Shown here in pieces: positions 8,277 through 63,584 of a stretch of 64,000 nt of DNA. The stretch covers positions 1,210 through 65,209 of the forward strand of contig CAZHWM010000020.1 in the NCBI GenBank assembly GCA_964535935.1. Reading direction: 5' to 3'. The notes below the pieces were generated by a model. The model made no database searches. It was not told the DNA's origin and saw only the letters and a program-made list of their open reading frames with translations. Within the stretch, counting starts at the first letter, position 1. Every line of letters begins with the position of its first letter. The position numbers and the translations under genes were made by a program. Source of the DNA: an uncultured Planctomycetales bacterium (lineage in GTDB: Bacteria > Omnitrophota > Gorgyraeia > Zapsychrales > Zapsychraceae).

Positions 8277-9419
8277 TCAATTACATAATTTTTCATATAC
8301 TTTTATAGTCTGAGAGGCAATATTCTCCCAATCAAATCTCTTTCTTACAAAATCAATCTGCTGTAGTCTTTGCTCCTCTGAAAAAGGAAACTGAACTGCA
8401 TAATGAAGTCTTTCACAGATTGCCTTAACATCACCAGGTCTAAAATAACTGTTGCTGTCAAGTTTTACCTCGCGATTGGCAGGGATATCTGAAACCATAC
8501 ATGGCAAACCATAACTCATTGCCTCAAGGAGCGCTATTGGCAGACCTTCGTAATATGAAGGCATTACAAATGTATGGGCATTATAATATAATTCATCAAG
8601 CGCATCTCTTTTAAGTCTCCCTGTAAGGATAACCTCTTTTATCTGGGCTGCTTTCTTCTTTATAGATAGACTATAACTATCCTCATGATCTGATTCACCT
8701 ACAATTACAAGTTTAAAATCACCATATCCATTGCTATGATTATCCCTTTTAAATAAACTAAACGCCTCAATCAAATCAATAAATCCTTTCTCAGGGACAA
8801 ATCTGCCAACGGCTATAAAATATCGATTTTTTTCAAGACCAAATCTCTTAAGAAGGCCTTTTTGTGTTGTATGGCCTGCTATGACAACCCCATTAGGTAT
8901 AACAACAGACTCCCTGCCAAATTTATCTCTAATATTATCGGCTATAGTCTTGGATATACAAATAATTTTATTGGCATATCTACATGCGCACATCTCCCCA
9001 ATTTTAAGAAAAATTTTAGCAACTCTATTCCACTTCTTACGCATATAATCAGGGCCATGATGGGTAACTACCACCTTTAACCCTAATAACCTAGCTAATG
9101 GCACACATAATGATGGTCCTATAGCATGTATATGTAAGATGTCACATCCTATTCTTTTAGTAAACCATATACCTTTAAAAGTGTGAATTATCGCTTCTAA
9201 AAACTTATTTTTAGGACAAGACAACGGAACCAGTTTGACTTTATTATATGCTGTTATAGATGTATCCACATAATTACACCGCGTTAACACTGTTACATCC
9301 CAACCATGCTTTACTATAATAGGATAAAGATTCTCACAATGAGATTCCACTCCTCCTTGAACACCGGGGAAACCTCTAGTACCCAAAACAACTATCTTTG
9401 GTAAAAAGTCTTTGTTCAT
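8277..9419 (-). CDS. glycosyltransferase, GT4/group 1
   Basis: 380 aa with E-x7-E context PSYYEGLPIALLEAMSYGLPCMVSD and N-terminal GTRGFPGVQGGVESH. Its start forms an ATGA overlap with the upstream radical SAM gene. Confidence 0.85.
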   Translation of the reverse strand: MNKDFLPKIVVLGTRGFPGVQGGVESHCENLYPIIVKHGWDVTVLTRCNYVDTSITAYNKVKLVPLSCPKNKFLEAIIHTFKGIWFTKRIGCDILHIHAIGPSLCVPLARLLGLKVVVTHHGPDYMRKKWNRVAKIFLKIGEMCACRYANKIICISKTIADNIRDKFGRESVVIPNGVVIAGHTTQKGLLKRFGLEKNRYFIAVGRFVPEKGFIDLIEAFSLFKRDNHSNGYGDFKLVIVGESDHEDSYSLSIKKKAAQIKEVILTGRLKRDALDELYYNAHTFVMPSYYEGLPIALLEAMSYGLPCMVSDIPANREVKLDSNSYFRPGDVKAICERLHYAVQFPFSEEQRLQQIDFVRKRFDWENIASQTIKVYEKLCN

Positions 9420-10381
9420 TTACGGGGCCTCAACTTTTGGTTTATTACCCATATAATAGGCTTCAAAGGATGATGCCATATGGCTGGTGCAGCGCTACCT
9501 ATCATCCAACAATTTTTCGTACAATTTTTTACCATATTTCTTACTTCATCTGCCCTCTTGCTATACCAGATCTCCTCCCATGATTGTTCCTTCAAATTAC
9601 CCATAGGCTGTTTTTCATCCATCCCATTACACGGCAGCACATCCCCCCAAGGATCGAGGAAGAAACCGTTTCTCCCCATCTCACATGGTAAAAGTCGTTT
9701 ATTGCCTTGAATATAATTAATTAACCCATAATTAAAATAAGCACGAAACCAATCTTTAATCCTCCTCGACCTTAACAACCGTGAAATTAATTTCTCAAAT
9801 TCTGCAATAACCATTGCTTTATCTTGGATAGCATTATCCCATTTATGAAAATAATGTGAATTATGTAAAGTAGCTGTAGCAAACTCATATCCTAAGGCCT
9901 CAGACAGATCATATAAATATACCAAATCCTTCGCATTCATATCCTGAACAGTTATGCCAAATCCTATATCCTTAATACCCATCTCTCTAAGTTTCAACAA
10001 GGTGCGTATTATCCTATCAAATCCATCCGGAATCCCTCTTATAGTATCGTTGGTCTTCTGCAAACCTTCTATACTAATACGTATACCCAGATCAGGATAT
10101 ATTCTACATAAATCAATAATCCTATCAGTAAAATATCCATTAGTACTAATAACTATTCGTTTCGTTTTCTTTCTTAATAAACCAACTATATCTGGTAAAT
10201 CACTACGTACAAAGGGCTCCCCCCCTGTAATATTTGTAAAAAACATCTCTGGCAACTTTTTAAGCACATCAAGACCTATTTCTTCTGAAGCCTTAGACGG
10301 ATAGTGCCATACATCACACATATTACATCTTGCATTACATCTGTAAGTTACAATAATAGAGGCATGTAGTTTGTTTTTCAT
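9416..10381 (-). CDS. radical SAM enzyme with C-terminal twitch/SPASM-like cysteine domain
   Basis: CNARCNMC (CX3CX2C, aa 15-22). The C-terminus has CEMGRNGFFLDPWGDVLPC (CX12GX4C) plus CTKNC. Confidence 0.85.
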   Translation of the reverse strand: MKNKLHASIIVTYRCNARCNMCDVWHYPSKASEEIGLDVLKKLPEMFFTNITGGEPFVRSDLPDIVGLLRKKTKRIVISTNGYFTDRIIDLCRIYPDLGIRISIEGLQKTNDTIRGIPDGFDRIIRTLLKLREMGIKDIGFGITVQDMNAKDLVYLYDLSEALGYEFATATLHNSHYFHKWDNAIQDKAMVIAEFEKLISRLLRSRRIKDWFRAYFNYGLINYIQGNKRLLPCEMGRNGFFLDPWGDVLPCNGMDEKQPMGNLKEQSWEEIWYSKRADEVRNMVKNCTKNCWMIGSAAPAIWHHPLKPIIWVINQKLRPRK

Positions 10382-10451
10382 ATCTATTCTCCCCTAAGGT
10401 TTTCTGTATCCAATTTTAGCTTAAAATTTATTTAACGAATATAAATAGTCT

Positions 10452-11666
10452 TTACATACAACTATTGTATATCTTAATCAACTGGTTATAATGTTTATCC
10501 GAATTCAATTCCTCCTCTACAAATTTTCTTGCATTATGCCCAATCTCTACTCTATTGGAATGATATGATATCATTCTCTCTATCTTCTGGCTTAAATCAT
10601 CGACATTACCCGGTTCAAAACATAGCCCCCTTTCGTTATCCTTTACCAACTCTGGGATACCGCCTATACGTGCCCCTACAACTGGTTTACCCAACGCAAA
10701 TGCCTCTATAACCGTTCTTGGATTATTCTCATACCATTCAGATGGGATGACCAAAAACATAGAACTTTTTATCTCTCCATACAATTCCTCACCCTTTTTA
10801 TATCCTAAGAACTTCACATTACTAATCCCTTCGTGCTCAACCTTTCTATGCAACTCTTCTCTTATAGGCCCATCACCTATTATCTTTAAGATCACATCTT
10901 TTTTTCTTACAGCATTAATCAATGTCTCAATCCCCTTCTCATAAGAGAGGCGGCCTACATAAACAATACTATTCTCATCTGCATCAAAATGTGGTTGAAA
11001 TTTAGTGATATCAACAAAATTAAACAAAAATTCCACACGGCCCTTCAGCCCCATTTCTAATACCTTATCTCTCAAAAATTTGCTCGGAGAAATATATACT
11101 GAAATATTATCATATATCCTTAAAATATTATGATGTAAATACATCTCAATAGTATTAACAAAACTCTTGGCAAGTGAATTTTTCGTACATCTGTTGAGAA
11201 AACAATGATAATATCTCCCGCCACGACAACGCTCACATATCTTCCCTCTAACCAGCATGGTATAACAGGCACATACCATCTTATAATCATGCATAGTAAA
11301 TACTGCAGGAATCTTATATTTTTTAAACACATCTAAAACAGATGGGGAAATCTGATGGGCAAAATTGTTTAGATGAACAATATCAGGCCTAAAATCCCTA
11401 ACAATCTTTTCAACCTTATTCCTGGCCTCAAAAGAATAAAGGATATCAGCCACGCTCTTCATCTTCTGCCTTAATCCAATAGGTTTATTATAATCTATAT
11501 ATGAGACAAAATATTTTTTATATGGGTAATCTGGATTAGATGGATGATCCATCCCCCAAAAAGCAACCTTATGCCCCTTTGACAATAAAAGATTGCCAGT
11601 ATTAATAGTACTAATAGCATCCCCGCCTTTAGGATACAGGAATTTATTTATTAAAAGAACTCTCAT
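10452..11666 (-). CDS. glycosyltransferase, GT4/group 1, with Cys-rich insertion
   Basis: 404 aa with E-x7-E context PSEWYENNPRTVIEAFALGKPVVG and the insertion VCACYTMLVRGKICERCRGGRYYHCFLNRC. Confidence 0.85.
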   Translation of the reverse strand: MRVLLINKFLYPKGGDAISTINTGNLLLSKGHKVAFWGMDHPSNPDYPYKKYFVSYIDYNKPIGLRQKMKSVADILYSFEARNKVEKIVRDFRPDIVHLNNFAHQISPSVLDVFKKYKIPAVFTMHDYKMVCACYTMLVRGKICERCRGGRYYHCFLNRCTKNSLAKSFVNTIEMYLHHNILRIYDNISVYISPSKFLRDKVLEMGLKGRVEFLFNFVDITKFQPHFDADENSIVYVGRLSYEKGIETLINAVRKKDVILKIIGDGPIREELHRKVEHEGISNVKFLGYKKGEELYGEIKSSMFLVIPSEWYENNPRTVIEAFALGKPVVGARIGGIPELVKDNERGLCFEPGNVDDLSQKIERMISYHSNRVEIGHNARKFVEEELNSDKHYNQLIKIYNSCM

Positions 11667-11817: not shown

Positions 11818-11858
11818 ATAATATAAAATAGGGGGTAAAGTAAAACTTTACCCCCTAT
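11818..11858 (-). terminator. rho-independent terminator after the membrane-anchored hsp20
   Basis: ATAGGGGGTAAAGT-TTT-ACTTTACCCCCTAT forms a perfect 14-bp stem, followed on the minus strand by a T-rich run. Confidence 0.6.
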
Positions 11859-11895
11859 TAGTTAATTATAACGATTTTAATTACTATATTAAATA

Positions 11896-12645
11896 TTAAT
11901 TTACATTAATTTTAACAGTATCATCCTTTTTCTGACTAATCCCCTGTTTTCGTGCTACTTTTATAGTCAACACTCCCTTTTTATAGTCAGCTTTAATAGA
12001 ATTCAAGTCTGCATCATCTGGCAAAGGAATAGAACGGGCAAAATATCCAAACCTCCTTTCCCGTTTAAAGAAATGATTGCCTTTATTCTCATCAAGTTCA
12101 TTCCTCTGTCCTGAGACAACTAGCATATGCCCCTTTGTTTCTACATTAATATTTTGTTTATCCATGCCGGGGATATCCATTTTTATTATATAACTGTCTT
12201 TAGTAGCTTTTACATCTGTATCCAAATCAAATGGGTTCTTTCTACTAAACCATCCAAAACCATTATACGCCCTTACACGGCCAAAGGCATCTCTGAACAT
12301 ACGATTCATCTGTCTCTGTATACGAACAAGTTCATCTAAGGGATCTGCGCTAACACTTCCGCCAAAACTATCCCAATAATCAGGCTCATTAAATTTAATC
12401 GGCGGAGTGGAAATAACTATGCTCCCTTGAGGCCGTATGTTATTGGACTGAACAGATAATGCCGCTATCTTTTTCTTTAAACTTCCTATCTGCCAGCTAA
12501 AAAAACAAACCACAACTAAAAAAAGGACTATTAGTCCTATAATAATCTTTTTACTATTTTCATCTATAGCAGCAGAACCAGCTTGCGACTGCAATTCATT
12601 TTTATTGTCTGACTGCTCAACATTGGTTTTATTTTCTGTGCCCAT
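11896..12645 (-). CDS. membrane-anchored Hsp20/alpha-crystallin family protein
   Basis: 249 aa. It has a polar N-terminus, one hydrophobic helix (IIIGLIVLFLVVVCFFSWQIG), then an ACD (DSYIIKMDIPGMDKQNINVETKGHMLVVSGQR ... FGYFARSIPLPDDADLNSIKADYKKGVLTIKV). A GAGGAGGGAG RBS precedes the start. Confidence 0.85.
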   Translation of the reverse strand: MGTENKTNVEQSDNKNELQSQAGSAAIDENSKKIIIGLIVLFLVVVCFFSWQIGSLKKKIAALSVQSNNIRPQGSIVISTPPIKFNEPDYWDSFGGSVSADPLDELVRIQRQMNRMFRDAFGRVRAYNGFGWFSRKNPFDLDTDVKATKDSYIIKMDIPGMDKQNINVETKGHMLVVSGQRNELDENKGNHFFKRERRFGYFARSIPLPDDADLNSIKADYKKGVLTIKVARKQGISQKKDDTVKINVN

Positions 12646-12724
12646 ATCGCTCCCTCCTCTTTAGAAATTTTATATTACTCTCACATTAATCAACGCCGCC
12701 ACCTATTCATTATACTTTACTTTT

Positions 12725-12973
12725 TTAAAACAAATCAAACAACTCACTTCTAAATCCATCATAACGTTTTCTAAAACGCCTTAATGCAACTGCAGAACTA
12801 ATAAATACCAAACCGATTACCACAAATATTGAAGCAATCATAGCAACCAACAACTGCGGCACCAAAACAATCAGTACTCCAAATAATATAAACAAAATTC
12901 CCTGTAATAGTTGATGCTTCCATGTCATAGAAAAACCATCAAAAAACACATCAAATACATCTATCTTCTGCAT
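12725..12973 (-). CDS. small two-helix membrane protein (DUF308/HdeD-like repeat)
   Basis: 82 aa. WKHQLLQGILFILFGVLIVLVPQ... followed by a second helix. An AGGGAG RBS precedes the start. Confidence 0.5.
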   Translation of the reverse strand: MQKIDVFDVFFDGFSMTWKHQLLQGILFILFGVLIVLVPQLLVAMIASIFVVIGLVFISSAVALRRFRKRYDGFRSELFDLF

Positions 12974-12993: not shown

Positions 12994-13031
12994 AAATATA
13001 AAAGGGGCATATTCACAAAAAGCTATGCCCC
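12994..13031 (-). terminator. rho-independent terminator after second hsp20
   Basis: GGGGCATA-(12 nt)-TATGCCCC forms a perfect 8-bp stem, followed on the minus strand by TTTTATATTT. Confidence 0.55.
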
Positions 13032-13044
13032 TTTCTCTGTATTC

Positions 13045-13425
13045 TTACGTAGAAATTTCAACCTTCTGAGGCTGTGCTTCTTTAGCTTTAGCAAGAGTAA
13101 TTTTTAATACACCATTCTGATAGTTTGCAGAAATATTCTCCTTGTCTACATCTGTATTTAGCTCAAAAATACGCCTATACTCTAAATCAGCGTATCTTTC
13201 CTGATAAACAGAAGTATATTCTTCCTCAATCTTATCTTTCTTCCTAACTCCTTTCACTATCAACTGATCTCCACACAATTCTACACTTAATGCATCTTTT
13301 TGTACCCCTGGCATATCCATCTCTATTACCACCGCATTTTCTGTCTCTGTTATATCAACAGGCGGCTGAACTACCAGCCTTTCCCCATCTTCTCTATTAC
13401 GTTTAATAAGCCTGTTAAGCCTCAT
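13045..13425 (-). CDS. Hsp20/alpha-crystallin small heat-shock protein
   Basis: ACD motifs AVVIEMDMPGVQKDALSVELCGDQLIVKG and NGVLKITLAKA. The start is set at the ATG 8 nt after GGAGGAGG; the track's GTG start at 13434 sits within the RBS. Confidence 0.9.
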   Translation of the reverse strand: MRLNRLIKRNREDGERLVVQPPVDITETENAVVIEMDMPGVQKDALSVELCGDQLIVKGVRKKDKIEEEYTSVYQERYADLEYRRIFELNTDVDKENISANYQNGVLKITLAKAKEAQPQKVEIST

Positions 13426-13495: not shown

Positions 13496-13972
13496 TTAAT
13501 TAACATCAATCTTAATCTGTTTAGGTTTTGCTTCTTCTTTCTTAGGCAAAGTTAATTCTAAAACCCCATCTTTAAATACAGCTTTAACTTTAGAACCATC
13601 CACCTCACTTGGAAGACTTATACTACGGTGGAAACTACCATAAAACCTTTCTGAACGGATATAATCTTCTTCTTTTACTTCTCTCTCTTGTTTTTTCTCG
13701 CCCTTTATGGTAAGGATATTATCCTGAATCAATACCTCTATATCGTCCTTTTTTAGCCCAGGCAGATCTGCTTTTACTACAACATTATCTTTAGAATCAT
13801 AAATATCAATAGCAGGTGCCCACTGTCCGCCTAAAAGAGTAGTATCGGTTTCCCCAAGTCTTGGAAACGTCAAATCAAATAACCTATTCATTTCTCTTTG
13901 AAGATTCTCTAACTCCTGAAAAGGAGATATTACATTCCAATCTTTTGTCCTTTTAGTAGGAACATTTGCCAT
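13496..13972 (-). CDS. Hsp20/alpha-crystallin small heat-shock protein
   Basis: SPFQELENLQREMNRLFD N-terminal motif. ACD motifs NVVVKADLPGLKKDDIEVLIQDNILTIKGEK ... ERFYGSFHRSISLPSEVD ... DGVLELTLPK. The start is set at the ATG after GGAGGAGG; the track's GTG is at 13981. Confidence 0.9.
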   Translation of the reverse strand: MANVPTKRTKDWNVISPFQELENLQREMNRLFDLTFPRLGETDTTLLGGQWAPAIDIYDSKDNVVVKADLPGLKKDDIEVLIQDNILTIKGEKKQEREVKEEDYIRSERFYGSFHRSISLPSEVDGSKVKAVFKDGVLELTLPKKEEAKPKQIKIDVN

Positions 13973-14141: not shown

Positions 14142-14168
14142 TTAGCACTCGATAGGCATGACTGCTAA
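14142..14168. promoter_or_regulatory. CIRCE-like inverted repeat (HrcA-operator-type)
   Basis: TTAGCACTC-GATAGGCAT-GACTGCTAA matches 17 of 18 arm positions of the CIRCE consensus TTAGCACTC-N9-GAGTGCTAA. It lies between the hspR-like stop codon and the first hsp20. Confidence 0.6.
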
Positions 14169-14189: not shown

Positions 14190-14477
14190 CTATTCTCCCT
14201 CCATCTCCAATATCACCTTCAGCCCGTTAATACATACTCTCTTTTTATTCAAATAATACCAACAACGCTGAATCTTGCTTAGTTCTCGTTTAGAATAATA
14301 TCGTGTATCCCCCTTCCTCTGTCTCTTAGGACTAACAATACCTTTTTCATCTAATTGCTTTAATACCCATACTGGAATATCTAAAATCCTACATATTACA
14401 CCTGTTGTAAACACAGGTTCATCAGGATCGATATATACCTCTTCATAATTATCCTTTGATTTTGCCCCCCCCTTCAT
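14190..14477 (-). CDS. MerR-family HTH regulator, HspR-like
   Basis: 95 aa. FTTGVICRILDIPVWVLKQLDEKGIVSPKRQRKGDTRYYSKRELSKIQ...INGLKVILEME follows the MerR/HspR HTH-wing pattern. It sits at the head of the sHSP locus. Confidence 0.8.
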   Translation of the reverse strand: MKGGAKSKDNYEEVYIDPDEPVFTTGVICRILDIPVWVLKQLDEKGIVSPKRQRKGDTRYYSKRELSKIQRCWYYLNKKRVCINGLKVILEMEGE

Positions 14478-14591: not shown

Positions 14592-14656
14592 TTTCACAAA
14601 TCAACCTTGTTAAATAGTGAAAAATGCACAAATCAACAAGGTTAAATAGTGCAGAA
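14592..14656. repeat. two tandem copies (B1, B2) of the 33-bp structured repeat
   Basis: B1 is TTCACAAATCAAC-CTT-GTTAAATAGTGAAAAAT. B2 is TGCACAAATCAAC-AAG-GTTAAATAGTGCAGAAT. Both have the same flank orientation but opposite central trinucleotides. Confidence 0.75.
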
Positions 14657-14693
14657 TACACAAATAAAGGAGAAATAAAGGAGAAATAAACTA

Positions 14694-50355: not shown

Positions 50356-51654
50356 CTATTTTTTCTTAGGTATCGTTATAATCAGCTCATCACCTTGAGT
50401 GGTTGTTGTCAATTTATCTGTATCCGCATCTTCTGGCAGAGATACAGATTTCAAAAATGAACCATAGGTATGCGAACGCACTGATGAATTTTTCGTAGTC
50501 TCTTCTGTCTGCTCAGAATATTCTCCTGATATGGACAATGAATGCTGATGTATTTCTATATCTATCTTATTCTTATTAAGACCCTTTGTATTAATCTTCA
50601 TCTCATATTTATCACCCAAATCCTTTAATTCAAAATCAGTATCATAAAACAAATCAGTATCAAACATCCCTGGCATACCTCCTTTAGAAGTTATACCAGA
50701 AAAACTATCTTCAAATATTCTACGCATACTCTCACGCATACGTTCCATCTCAGCAAACGGATCCCACCGTCTTCCCACAGAAGAGAAGGAAGGAGACAAA
50801 CTCTGAGATTTCATACTACTCGTATTATTAGAAGAAATATTACGTTTCACAGAGACACTTTTATTTCTTCTATACTCGTCCAATGCCTTTTTAACCTTCT
50901 CTATGGGTATAGCAAAACCTATACTCTGAGAATTCTGAACCACTGCCACATTAATACCAACCAACTCCCCATTCAAATTAAGCAATGCACCGCCACTATT
51001 ACCAGGATTAATCGGTGCATCTATTTGCAAAAGGCCATCAAATACGATCCTACCATTACTAGCCTCTATCTTTCTATCCTTCCCACTTATAACTCCCACA
51101 GTAACCGAATTTTCAAGCCCTAAAGGATTTCCTATCGCCACAACTGTCTCTCCTATCATAACATCTCCTGGCTTGCCCAATTTAGCTGCATGCAAGGGCT
51201 CAGGGGGAGTTATTTTTACAATTGCAATATCATCTTTAGGGTCTTCATACATCACCTTCCCCTCTACTGACTTACCATCCCTTAATATGACCACCACATT
51301 ACTAGCCATATTCACAACATGTGCATTAGTTACTATAATCCCATTCGTATCTAAAATTACACCTGACCCCACACTATGTAACTTCAATGCCCGCCTTGGA
51401 GTATAATAACCAAAGAATTTTTCAAAAAGCATATCGAATTCACTGCCATAACGTCCCCAAAATGGATTCTCACTAAGATAAATCAACCGCTCAGTACTTA
51501 TATTCACAACTGCAGAGGCATTTTCCCTTACTACCTTCACCACTGGTGTTTCTCTAGGATTATCCTTAGAGGCAAAAGCAGATCTCACGCATACACAAAT
51601 AACCGCTATCGACATAAAAACAATAGACCTTCTATAGGACGACCATCTCCTCAT
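50356..51654 (-). CDS. HtrA/DegP-type serine protease fused to a C-terminal Hsp20 alpha-crystallin domain (no PDZ evident)
   Basis: Signal-peptide-like N-terminus. The S1C triad contexts are TNAHV (His112), DDIAIV (Asp141/142) and GNSGGAL (Ser220). A Ser/Asn-rich linker is followed by [18 protein letters not shown] ... [29 protein letters not shown] ... [15 protein letters not shown] ... ELIITIPKK. Confidence 0.85.
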
Positions 51655-63519: not shown

Positions 63520-63584
63520 AACTCTTATAGTTTATCTCTTTAATTAAAAATCCTCAAGGATAATACCCAAAATTTCAAAACAAG

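Follow-up and report, generated by a model that had tools for sequence, protein, structure and literature searches.

Can a bacterial small heat shock protein (sHSP) work outside the cytoplasm? In bacteria these chaperones are regarded as first responders of the cytosol, which rely on DnaK and ClpB to release their clients. The question is raised by a 64-kb stretch of contig CAZHWM010000020.1, from an uncultured bacterium of the Omnitrophota (all 64,000 nucleotides of it are referred to below as the window). The last gene of an sHSP cassette in this window encodes a 249-aa protein, here called TM-sHSP, in which a transmembrane (TM) helix precedes the chaperone unit. Comparison with its relatives suggests that these bacteria probably use outside the cytoplasm a chaperone type that is normally cytoplasmic.

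The predicted protein

The gene lies on the minus strand, and an identical copy of the 249-aa protein is annotated on public Omnitrophota contigs. Its parts, with the evidence for each, including the AlphaFold2 model and its per-residue confidence (predicted local distance difference test, pLDDT), are as follows.

11896..12645 (-), gene of TM-sHSP, the membrane-anchored sHSP, 249 aa (open reading frame list and sequence, Pfam HSP20)
12651..12660 (-), Shine-Dalgarno sequence AGAGGAGGGA, about 5-6 nt ahead of the ATG (sequence reading)
12547..12645 (-), codons 1-33, polar net-acidic N-tail with 4 K and 6 D/E (sequence; low pLDDT, unstructured)
12478..12546 (-), codons 34-56, transmembrane helix IIIGLIVLFLVVVCFFSWQIGSL (hydropathy; AlphaFold2 helix, pLDDT 94-98)
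12445..12477 (-), codons 57-67, basic juxtamembrane helix KKKIAALSVQS (the AlphaFold2 helix runs on to residue 67)
12343..12444 (-), codons 68-101, flexible linker (pLDDT 52-55, no secondary structure)
12265..12342 (-), codons 102-127, helix of the sHSP N-terminal motif, PLDELVRIQRQMNRMFRDAFGR (AlphaFold2 helix, family consensus)
11950..12219 (-), codons 143-232, beta-sandwich of the alpha-crystallin domain (ACD) (Pfam HSP20; AlphaFold2 strands, pLDDT about 95)
11902..11910 (-), codons 246-248, C-terminal I-N-V, an I/V-x-I/V oligomerisation motif (family consensus; AlphaFold2 strand 244-246)

By every sequence criterion that we tried, namely the ACD, the N-terminal motif and the C-terminal I-x-V, TM-sHSP is a member of the sHSP family. 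Pfam HSP20 (PF00011) matches residues 144-247 with E=3.4e-24, and relatives of the protein match PF27746 ('Small_heat_shock_put'). The helix at 102-127 reads PLDELVRIQRQMNRMFRDAF, the family consensus being WDPFxEMxxMQxxMNRMF; the C-terminus is …VKINVN, and KIxV is kept across 102 aligned family members. The AlphaFold2 model built on the alignment of these 102 members (mean pLDDT 79.5) consists of a single continuous helix at 29-67 (pLDDT 94-98), a disordered stretch at 68-101, a second helix at 102-127, the beta-sandwich at 143-232 and a short strand at 244-246. The best Foldseek matches of the model are all sHSP ACDs, among them Xanthomonas HspA (3GLA) and wheat Hsp16.9 (1GME), and sequence matches in the PDB are likewise confined to sHSP ACDs (1GME and 2BYU).

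The departure from the family lies in the N-terminal part. Residues 34-56 form a 23-residue stretch devoid of charge, and the Kyte-Doolittle 19-mer maximum of the protein is 2.71, whereas the two adjoining sHSPs reach 0.54 and 0.59 (the 15-mer value of the helix is 3.59). No A-x-A cleavage site is present in the hydrophobic segment 34-56. A soluble cytosolic location, which is typical of bacterial sHSPs though not strictly defining, is thus at odds with both the helix and the signal-peptide relatives described below. We also considered a lipoprotein and rejected it, as no lipobox precedes C47. The original prediction had described a polar N-terminus of about 33 aa, a single strongly hydrophobic helix and a complete unit of N-terminal motif and ACD; residues 1-33 and 34-56 bear out the former two, and Pfam, the AlphaFold2 model and the family consensus the last. 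Its linker of about 60 aa was wrong, since about 45-48 aa separate the helix from the LDELV motif.

A family of exported and anchored sHSPs

A word-index search returned only ten relatives of TM-sHSP. A profile made from eight of them was run against 1.84 billion cluster representatives and gave 617 matches at E<1e-30, of which the best 150 are nearly all 205-245 aa long and align from their first residues. Together with the window protein these make up the 151 sequences examined, and 140 of them carry an N-terminal hydrophobic segment (a 15-mer with a Kyte-Doolittle value of at least 2.0 inside the first 80 residues). Two motif rules assign about 70-110 members to an anchored type A, which begins with MKNxK followed by some 15-23 hydrophobic residues, often with E/Q-x-x-Y-L and a basic cluster, and which has no plausible signal peptidase I (SPase-I) site. 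About 40-51 members form a type B with motif-defined signal peptides that end in A-x-A and are followed by acidic residues (…PQVWA/DDT, …VSVYA/ADD and …LISWA/ADE, the slash marking the cleavage site); in 30 of these a coiled-coil heptad pattern, QLKEQVxxLQxRVxxLE, comes after the cleavage site.

Among species-representative genomes, proteins of the two types occur in metagenome-assembled genomes (MAGs) of Omnitrophota, MAGs labelled Planctomycetia or Planctomycetales, one Luteolibacter and a small number of unclassified bacteria. The source annotation, where it names these relatives at all, calls them just 'Hsp20/alpha crystallin family protein'. The same genome scan also returned many Acidobacteriota loci, which we left out because they encode ordinary cytosolic sHSPs of 150 aa. 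Judged from the profile matches, TM-sHSP is one of a large family of exported and anchored sHSPs, so far without a name, that is centred on Omnitrophota and MAGs of the Planctomycetes-Verrucomicrobia-Chlamydiae (PVC) type. Anchors and signal peptides replace one another within this family: members of the cleaved and the anchored type are mixed together in a neighbour-joining (NJ) tree of the N-terminal motif and ACD, bootstrapped on numpy distances. Three longer proteins of 360-394 aa (P0146, P0168 and P0262) each contain two stretches that match the family profile and may be tandem-ACD proteins; hydrophobic N-termini are found in P0168 and, just below the cutoff, in P0146, and none in P0262.

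Translation of the anchor

The N-terminal 60-100 codons might conceivably be a mis-called extension, the real product being an ordinary cytosolic sHSP that starts downstream; over-long open reading frames are a general risk, and the next in-frame Met is M112. This residue, however, sits inside the conserved motif helix. The ATG at 12645 lies 6 nt downstream of AGAGGAGGGAG, and the strong Shine-Dalgarno sequence ahead of it is kept as AAAGAGGAGG in the closest orthologue (P0002 of locus L092, 79% identity), which has the same start codon. Substitution rates between the two genes, computed by the Nei-Gojobori method, speak for translation from this start: with dS of about 1.0 for the gene and 1.0-1.6 across codons 1-67, dN/dS over these codons is 0.05-0.14, amounting to 0.14 in the N-tail (1-33) and to 0.053 in residues 34-67, the TM and juxtamembrane part. 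The ratio is 0.29 in the linker (codons 68-101), 0.061 in the N-terminal motif and 0.081 in the ACD. The hydrophobic N-terminus shared by 140 of the 151 sequences is equally hard to reconcile with a spurious extension. With its start signals kept in the orthologue and a low dN/dS across the TM part, the hydrophobic anchor is, on comparative grounds, translated and under purifying selection. A mis-called start, which the original prediction had named as the finding that would undo its anchor, was rejected for the same reasons and is now extremely improbable.

Predicted topology

TM-sHSP combines a segment able to span the bilayer (the 23 uncharged residues) with the lack of an SPase-I site, as a signal-anchor does. 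It appears likely that the protein is an uncleaved signal-anchor of the inner membrane with its N-terminus in and its C-terminus out (N-in/C-out), which would place the sHSP unit at the periplasmic face. The N-tail (codons 1-33) would then probably be cytoplasmic, and we consider the periplasmic exposure of the ACD itself quite likely. K or R is present in the N-tail of every non-cleaved member (0 of 99 lack both), and long N-tails are lysine-rich, with up to 11 K/R; such tails fit a retained cytoplasmic N-terminus and not a translocated one. The mixing of types A and B in the tree also favours N-in/C-out, as a cleavage site is easily gained or lost and a compartment is not easily inverted time and again. 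Just behind the helix, the motif S-L-K-K-K-I-A-A-L aligns with the first coiled-coil heptad of the type B proteins P0007 and P0008; LKxx(I/V)xxL is common to the three proteins, and L56 is an invariant column in the alignment (A1). Since the type B coiled coil is taken as periplasmic, its homology to the post-TM motif points to the same orientation.

A further argument comes from the loci L090 and L091, where the homologous cassettes hold a different kind of protein in the position of TM-sHSP, after the gene m82 that precedes it in the window.

L090:5408-6022, signal-peptide ACD protein in the cassette slot of the window TM-sHSP
L091:5300-5938, signal-peptide ACD protein in the same slot

These proteins of 204 and 212 aa have motif-defined cleavable signal peptides (VPSFA/EED in L090, VAFA/QED in L091) and a coiled coil, and are colinear with TM-sHSP over a stretch that starts at the hydrophobic segment and extends across the ACD. 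The occurrence of signal-peptide ACD proteins in the same cassette slot favours N-in/C-out for TM-sHSP.

Several observations weigh against this arrangement, and some of them would suit the opposite orientation (N-out/C-in), with the sHSP unit on the cytoplasmic face of the membrane, where it would capture unfolding domains of membrane proteins for DnaK and ClpB. The charges flanking the helix leave the orientation ambiguous: they amount to +2/-2 on the N-terminal side and +4/0 on the C-terminal side (2 K before, 4 K/R in the 15 residues after), the basic cluster (KKK here) directly follows the helix, and anchored relatives average 2.28 K+R before the helix and 3.12 after it. That the SKK and KKK flanks do not settle the topology had been anticipated, and these counts agree. 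The net-acidic N-tail would in principle permit its own translocation. The operon partners are cytosolic sHSPs, and relatives adjoin ClpB, GroEL and DnaK, on whose ATP-dependent release activity sHSPs normally rely; such neighbours fit a cytoplasm-facing chaperone equally well. Moreover, the split between anchored and cleaved types follows simple motif rules, and resolution of the NJ tree is poor, with no supported clade for the exported family by itself. N-out/C-in nevertheless has to contend with the K/R that each anchored relative keeps in its short N-tail (MKNxK), much like the cleaved n-regions of the same family (mean K+R of 2.27 in type A vs 2.31 in type B, indistinguishable), with the K/R-rich long N-tails and with the homology of the post-TM motif to a periplasmic coiled coil. 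It would also demand repeated flips between compartments, as anchored and cleaved forms mix in the tree and share a cassette slot. We regard this orientation as unlikely.

Alternatively, the hydrophobic segment might be a long atypical signal peptide whose cleavage leaves a soluble periplasmic protein, in line with the many relatives of clearly cleaved type and with a weak I-G-S/L site at residues 53-56. A polar n-region of 33 residues and an uncharged h-region of 23 are, however, atypical of SPase-I substrates; A-x-A is absent, KKK directly follows the sole candidate site, and some 70-100 relatives carry an uncleavable E/Q-x-x-Y-L motif with a variable residue at -1 (V, I, F, L). Cleavage of TM-sHSP is accordingly very unlikely.

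The cassette and its regulation

The minus-strand cassette that ends with TM-sHSP runs from a MerR/HspR-like gene over a CIRCE element (controlling inverted repeat of chaperone expression), a 158-aa sHSP, a 126-aa sHSP, m82 and TM-sHSP to a strong terminator.

14190..14477 (-), gene of a MerR/HspR-like regulator, first in the cassette (Pfam MerR_1, E=2.8e-6)
14142..14168 (-), CIRCE element TTAGCAGTC-N9-GAGTGCTAA, predicted HrcA operator (one mismatch to the consensus)
13496..13972 (-), cytosolic-type sHSP, 158 aa, or 161 aa from an upstream GTG (Pfam HSP20, E=1.7e-27; 158 aa on public contigs)
13045..13425 (-), cytosolic-type sHSP without the N-terminal motif, 126 aa, or 129 aa from an upstream GTG (Pfam HSP20, E=2.4e-19; 126 aa on public contigs)
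13000..13035 (-), terminator-like hairpin right after the 126-aa sHSP (folding free energy dG -19.1 kcal/mol, z -3.7), followed by UUUUAUAUUU
12725..12973 (-), m82, an 82-aa two-TM hairpin membrane protein (Kyte-Doolittle maximum 2.91; homologues)
11827..11859 (-), intrinsic terminator after TM-sHSP (15-bp stem and T-run; dG -25 kcal/mol, z -4.2)

The gene order is repeated in L092, L009, L004, L090 and L091, with m82 missing from L004. The 158-aa sHSP falls in a clade with 100% bootstrap support in the NJ tree, and the 126-aa sHSP forms another 100% clade with its L004 and L009 orthologues. The MerR-like gene is kept in L004, L090, L091 and L092; against the NCBIfam HspR model its product scores 39.7 bits, the cutoff being 105.

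The CIRCE element was found with the consensus TTAGCACTC-N9-GAGTGCTAA and is the sole such site in the 64 kb, where 0.01 would be expected by chance. CIRCE also precedes the homologous cassettes in L004, L009, L005, L012, L090 and L091, and in L012 it lies directly upstream of the anchored sHSP. The window itself contains no hrcA gene, which is present in the related loci L005 and L009. In this cassette an operator of the HrcA type thus goes together with the gene of a MerR-type regulator, and it lies between that gene and the first sHSP. A window search for the HspR-associated inverted repeat (HAIR, CTTGAGT-N7-ACTCAAG) found no match near the locus and a single one with 3 mismatches at 63538, which is at chance level; we therefore prefer CIRCE to control of the HspR type. 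Two tandem 32-nt repeats (14595-14658), 81% identical and with palindromic cores (AACCTTGTT and AACAAGGTT), precede the promoter-like site of the MerR-like gene; judging by this arrangement, they may be a regulator binding site.

From the layout of the cassette, co-transcription of m82 and TM-sHSP from the CIRCE promoter is plausible. The hairpin at 13000-13035, situated between the 126-aa sHSP and m82, counts against it: it may end or attenuate transcription inside the cassette, setting m82 and TM-sHSP apart from the two cytosolic sHSP genes, and it leaves CIRCE control of TM-sHSP in doubt.

The small two-helix membrane protein that the original prediction had placed ahead of TM-sHSP was borne out and is conserved. 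The word-index search found 12 homologues of m82, all of 82 aa and 61-100% identical, and m82 occupies the same position in L009, L090, L091 and L092. A tblastn search of 80 related loci matched only L009 and the window copies. The protein is absent from L004, L005 and L007 and is in this sense a lineage-restricted partner. The likeness to DUF308 (PF03729) that had also been proposed did not hold up, as the match falls short of the cutoff (E=0.02, 15.6 bits where 25 are required); a match to DUF7670 likewise stays below its own (22.5 bits against 29). The basic C-tail suggests that both ends of m82 are probably cytoplasmic. The N-terminus, MQKIDVFDVFFDGF, contains K-I-D-V, identical to the C-terminal I-x-V motif of the 158-aa sHSP (…QIKIDVN), and could be a membrane docking peptide for cytosolic sHSPs, to go by its sequence. 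The L009 homologue retains just the aromatic/acidic pattern of this N-terminus.

In the related loci, the exported or anchored sHSP is found between ClpB and HrcA-GrpE-DnaK-DnaJ (L005), ahead of GroES-GroEL (L004), ahead of ClpB (L009) and beside a MoxR/BatA-type operon (L007). In some relatives (L007:2884-9573, L004:13781-15655) the anchored sHSP adjoins, or lies within a few kb of, a MoxR-DUF58-BatA/BatD-VWA-TPR operon similar to the aerotolerance operon of Bacteroides. In L007 the anchored sHSP comes after a two-component system. The MoxR setting suggests an envelope-stress wiring unlike that of the CIRCE cassette. Directly downstream of the sHSP locus in the window (8277-11666, minus strand), two family 4 glycosyltransferases (GT4) surround a radical-SAM/SPASM enzyme; these genes look unrelated to the chaperone cassette.

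An HtrA-like protease with an alpha-crystallin domain

The window contains four open reading frames with an ACD, as had been claimed. The fourth belongs to a protease.

50356..51654 (-), exported HtrA-like serine protease with a C-terminal ACD replacing PDZ (Trypsin_2 and HSP20, no PDZ match)

This protein (HtrA-ACD) has a signal peptide (…RSAFA/SK) and a trypsin-like HtrA core, and its architecture without PDZ recurs in more than 90 database clusters, mostly from Omnitrophota. The ACD of TM-sHSP had been thought closer to the HtrA-fused ACD than to those of its cytosolic-type neighbours. Pairwise, this was not found: identity and score are 32% and 84 bits with the 158-aa sHSP (161 aa from the GTG), 30% and 76 bits with the HtrA-fused ACD, and 33% and 51 bits with the 126-aa sHSP (129 aa from the GTG). 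At the level of families the claim holds weakly, HtrA ACDs and exported sHSPs splitting from the cytosolic ones in 52% of bootstraps; the HtrA-fused ACDs themselves form a clade with 88% support. The slot proteins of L090 and L091 have an ACD 40-45% identical to the HtrA-fused one, but share their signal peptide and coiled coil with the exported family, and they lack the C-terminal I-x-I tail; by sequence they look like a bridge between exported sHSPs and HtrA-ACD. The envelope-directed branch of the sHSP family that had been proposed is accordingly supported by the exported and anchored family, by these slot proteins and by the wide occurrence of HtrA-ACD, the tree being weak on this point.

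The HtrA ACD stops right after beta9 (…ITIPKKK), without an I-x-I tail of its own, and TM-sHSP ends in …KINVN; docking of the TM-sHSP tail into the groove of the HtrA ACD is therefore conceivable. A functional coupling of the two proteins is speculative, the link being that the ACDs of both would lie outside the cytoplasm.

Comparison with known systems

Canonical cytosolic sHSPs (the IbpA/IbpB class, 3GLA, 1GME) share with TM-sHSP the ACD beta-sandwich, the hydrophobic N-terminal motif helix, the I/V-x-I/V tail, a monomer of 12-43 kDa and a heat-shock operon. They differ in having neither the conserved TM helix and predicted cytoplasmic tail of TM-sHSP nor the Sec signal peptides of its family. 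Among the solved or characterised bacterial sHSPs found here, none has a TM helix or a signal peptide. Synechocystis Hsp17, Oenococcus Lo18 and M. tuberculosis Hsp16.3 are sHSPs that come to membranes in heat stress by peripheral lipid binding from the cytoplasm; unlike TM-sHSP, they have no transmembrane segment or signal peptide. As an integral membrane or exported protein, TM-sHSP would thus depart, by its sequence features, from all characterised bacterial sHSPs. In the sHSPs of plant organelles and the endoplasmic reticulum (ER) lumen, an N-terminal targeting sequence sends an sHSP across a membrane, away from the cytosolic Hsp70/Hsp100 pool. By analogy, these proteins may serve as a conceptual precedent; they are, however, eukaryotic and soluble, with cleaved signals, whereas TM-sHSP is bacterial and predicted to stay anchored, and the ACD is the only evidence of common ancestry.

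The envelope has ATP-independent holdases of its own in Spy, Skp, HdeA/B, PpiD/YfgM and LipH, which offer a likeness in the manner of working and have unrelated folds (PMC8144458; PMC13381987). PpiD and LipH also share the predicted layout of TM-sHSP, a single N-terminal anchor followed by a periplasmic chaperone domain; a 2021 review of stress-responsive periplasmic chaperones names sHSPs just as the cytoplasmic IbpA/IbpB (PMC8144458; PMC13381987). In Proteobacteria, the tLST (locus of heat resistance) encodes cytosolic sHSPs and an envelope module that includes HdeD-GI (DUF308), periplasmic chaperones and DegP (PMC8290217). It resembles the window cassette as a heat-resistance gene set that brings together cytosolic sHSPs and a small integral membrane protein, and differs in that its sHSPs are cytosolic and its periplasmic chaperones are YfdX (PMC8290217); m82, moreover, matches DUF308 only below threshold. 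HtrA-ACD (50356-51654) shares its signal peptide and trypsin-like core with the PDZ-bearing DegP/HtrA proteases, the ACD taking the place of PDZ. In the full-text literature, with subscription journals mostly outside its coverage, nothing relevant was found on periplasmic, secreted or TM-anchored sHSPs of bacteria or on HtrA-ACD fusions.

Proposed mechanism and significance

In the mechanism that we infer from sequence, from the orientation and holdase activity of TM-sHSP to its co-transcription with the CIRCE promoter and the hand-off to HtrA-ACD, the protein would be produced, along with m82 and two cytosolic sHSPs, from a heat-shock cassette of the CIRCE/HrcA type. Its acidic 33-residue tail would stay in the cytoplasm and helix 34-56 would span the inner membrane, leaving the full sHSP unit at the periplasmic face, tethered by the basic helix next to the membrane and by some 35 residues of flexible leash. 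Under heat or envelope stress, TM-sHSP would oligomerise by ACD and I-x-V contacts and might act as an ATP-independent holdase for periplasmic or membrane proteins that unfold near the membrane; we favour a holdase because the canonical elements of oligomerisation and client binding (N-terminal motif, ACD and I-x-V tail) are all conserved. Clients may later be released to refold spontaneously, or be handed to the HtrA-ACD protease of the same genome. The wider proposal is a tentative one, and on balance rather doubtful: an ATP-independent envelope proteostasis based on sHSPs in Omnitrophota and related PVC-type bacteria, in which anchored and soluble exported sHSPs would be switched by CIRCE, dock by I-x-V into the HtrA ACD and feed it substrates.

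Hundreds of members with signal peptides or anchors, a heat-shock wiring and an HtrA with an ACD for PDZ would extend the sHSP concept to a compartment free of ATP. This raises the question of how clients are released without ATP, the candidates being spontaneous refolding, hand-off to a protease and return across the membrane. Structural biologists would be offered a naturally membrane-tethered sHSP, and annotation pipelines would gain a subfamily now labelled merely 'Hsp20 family protein'. If true, the envelope system would be the first network of sHSPs in a periplasm and would bring a new substrate-recognition module of HtrA.

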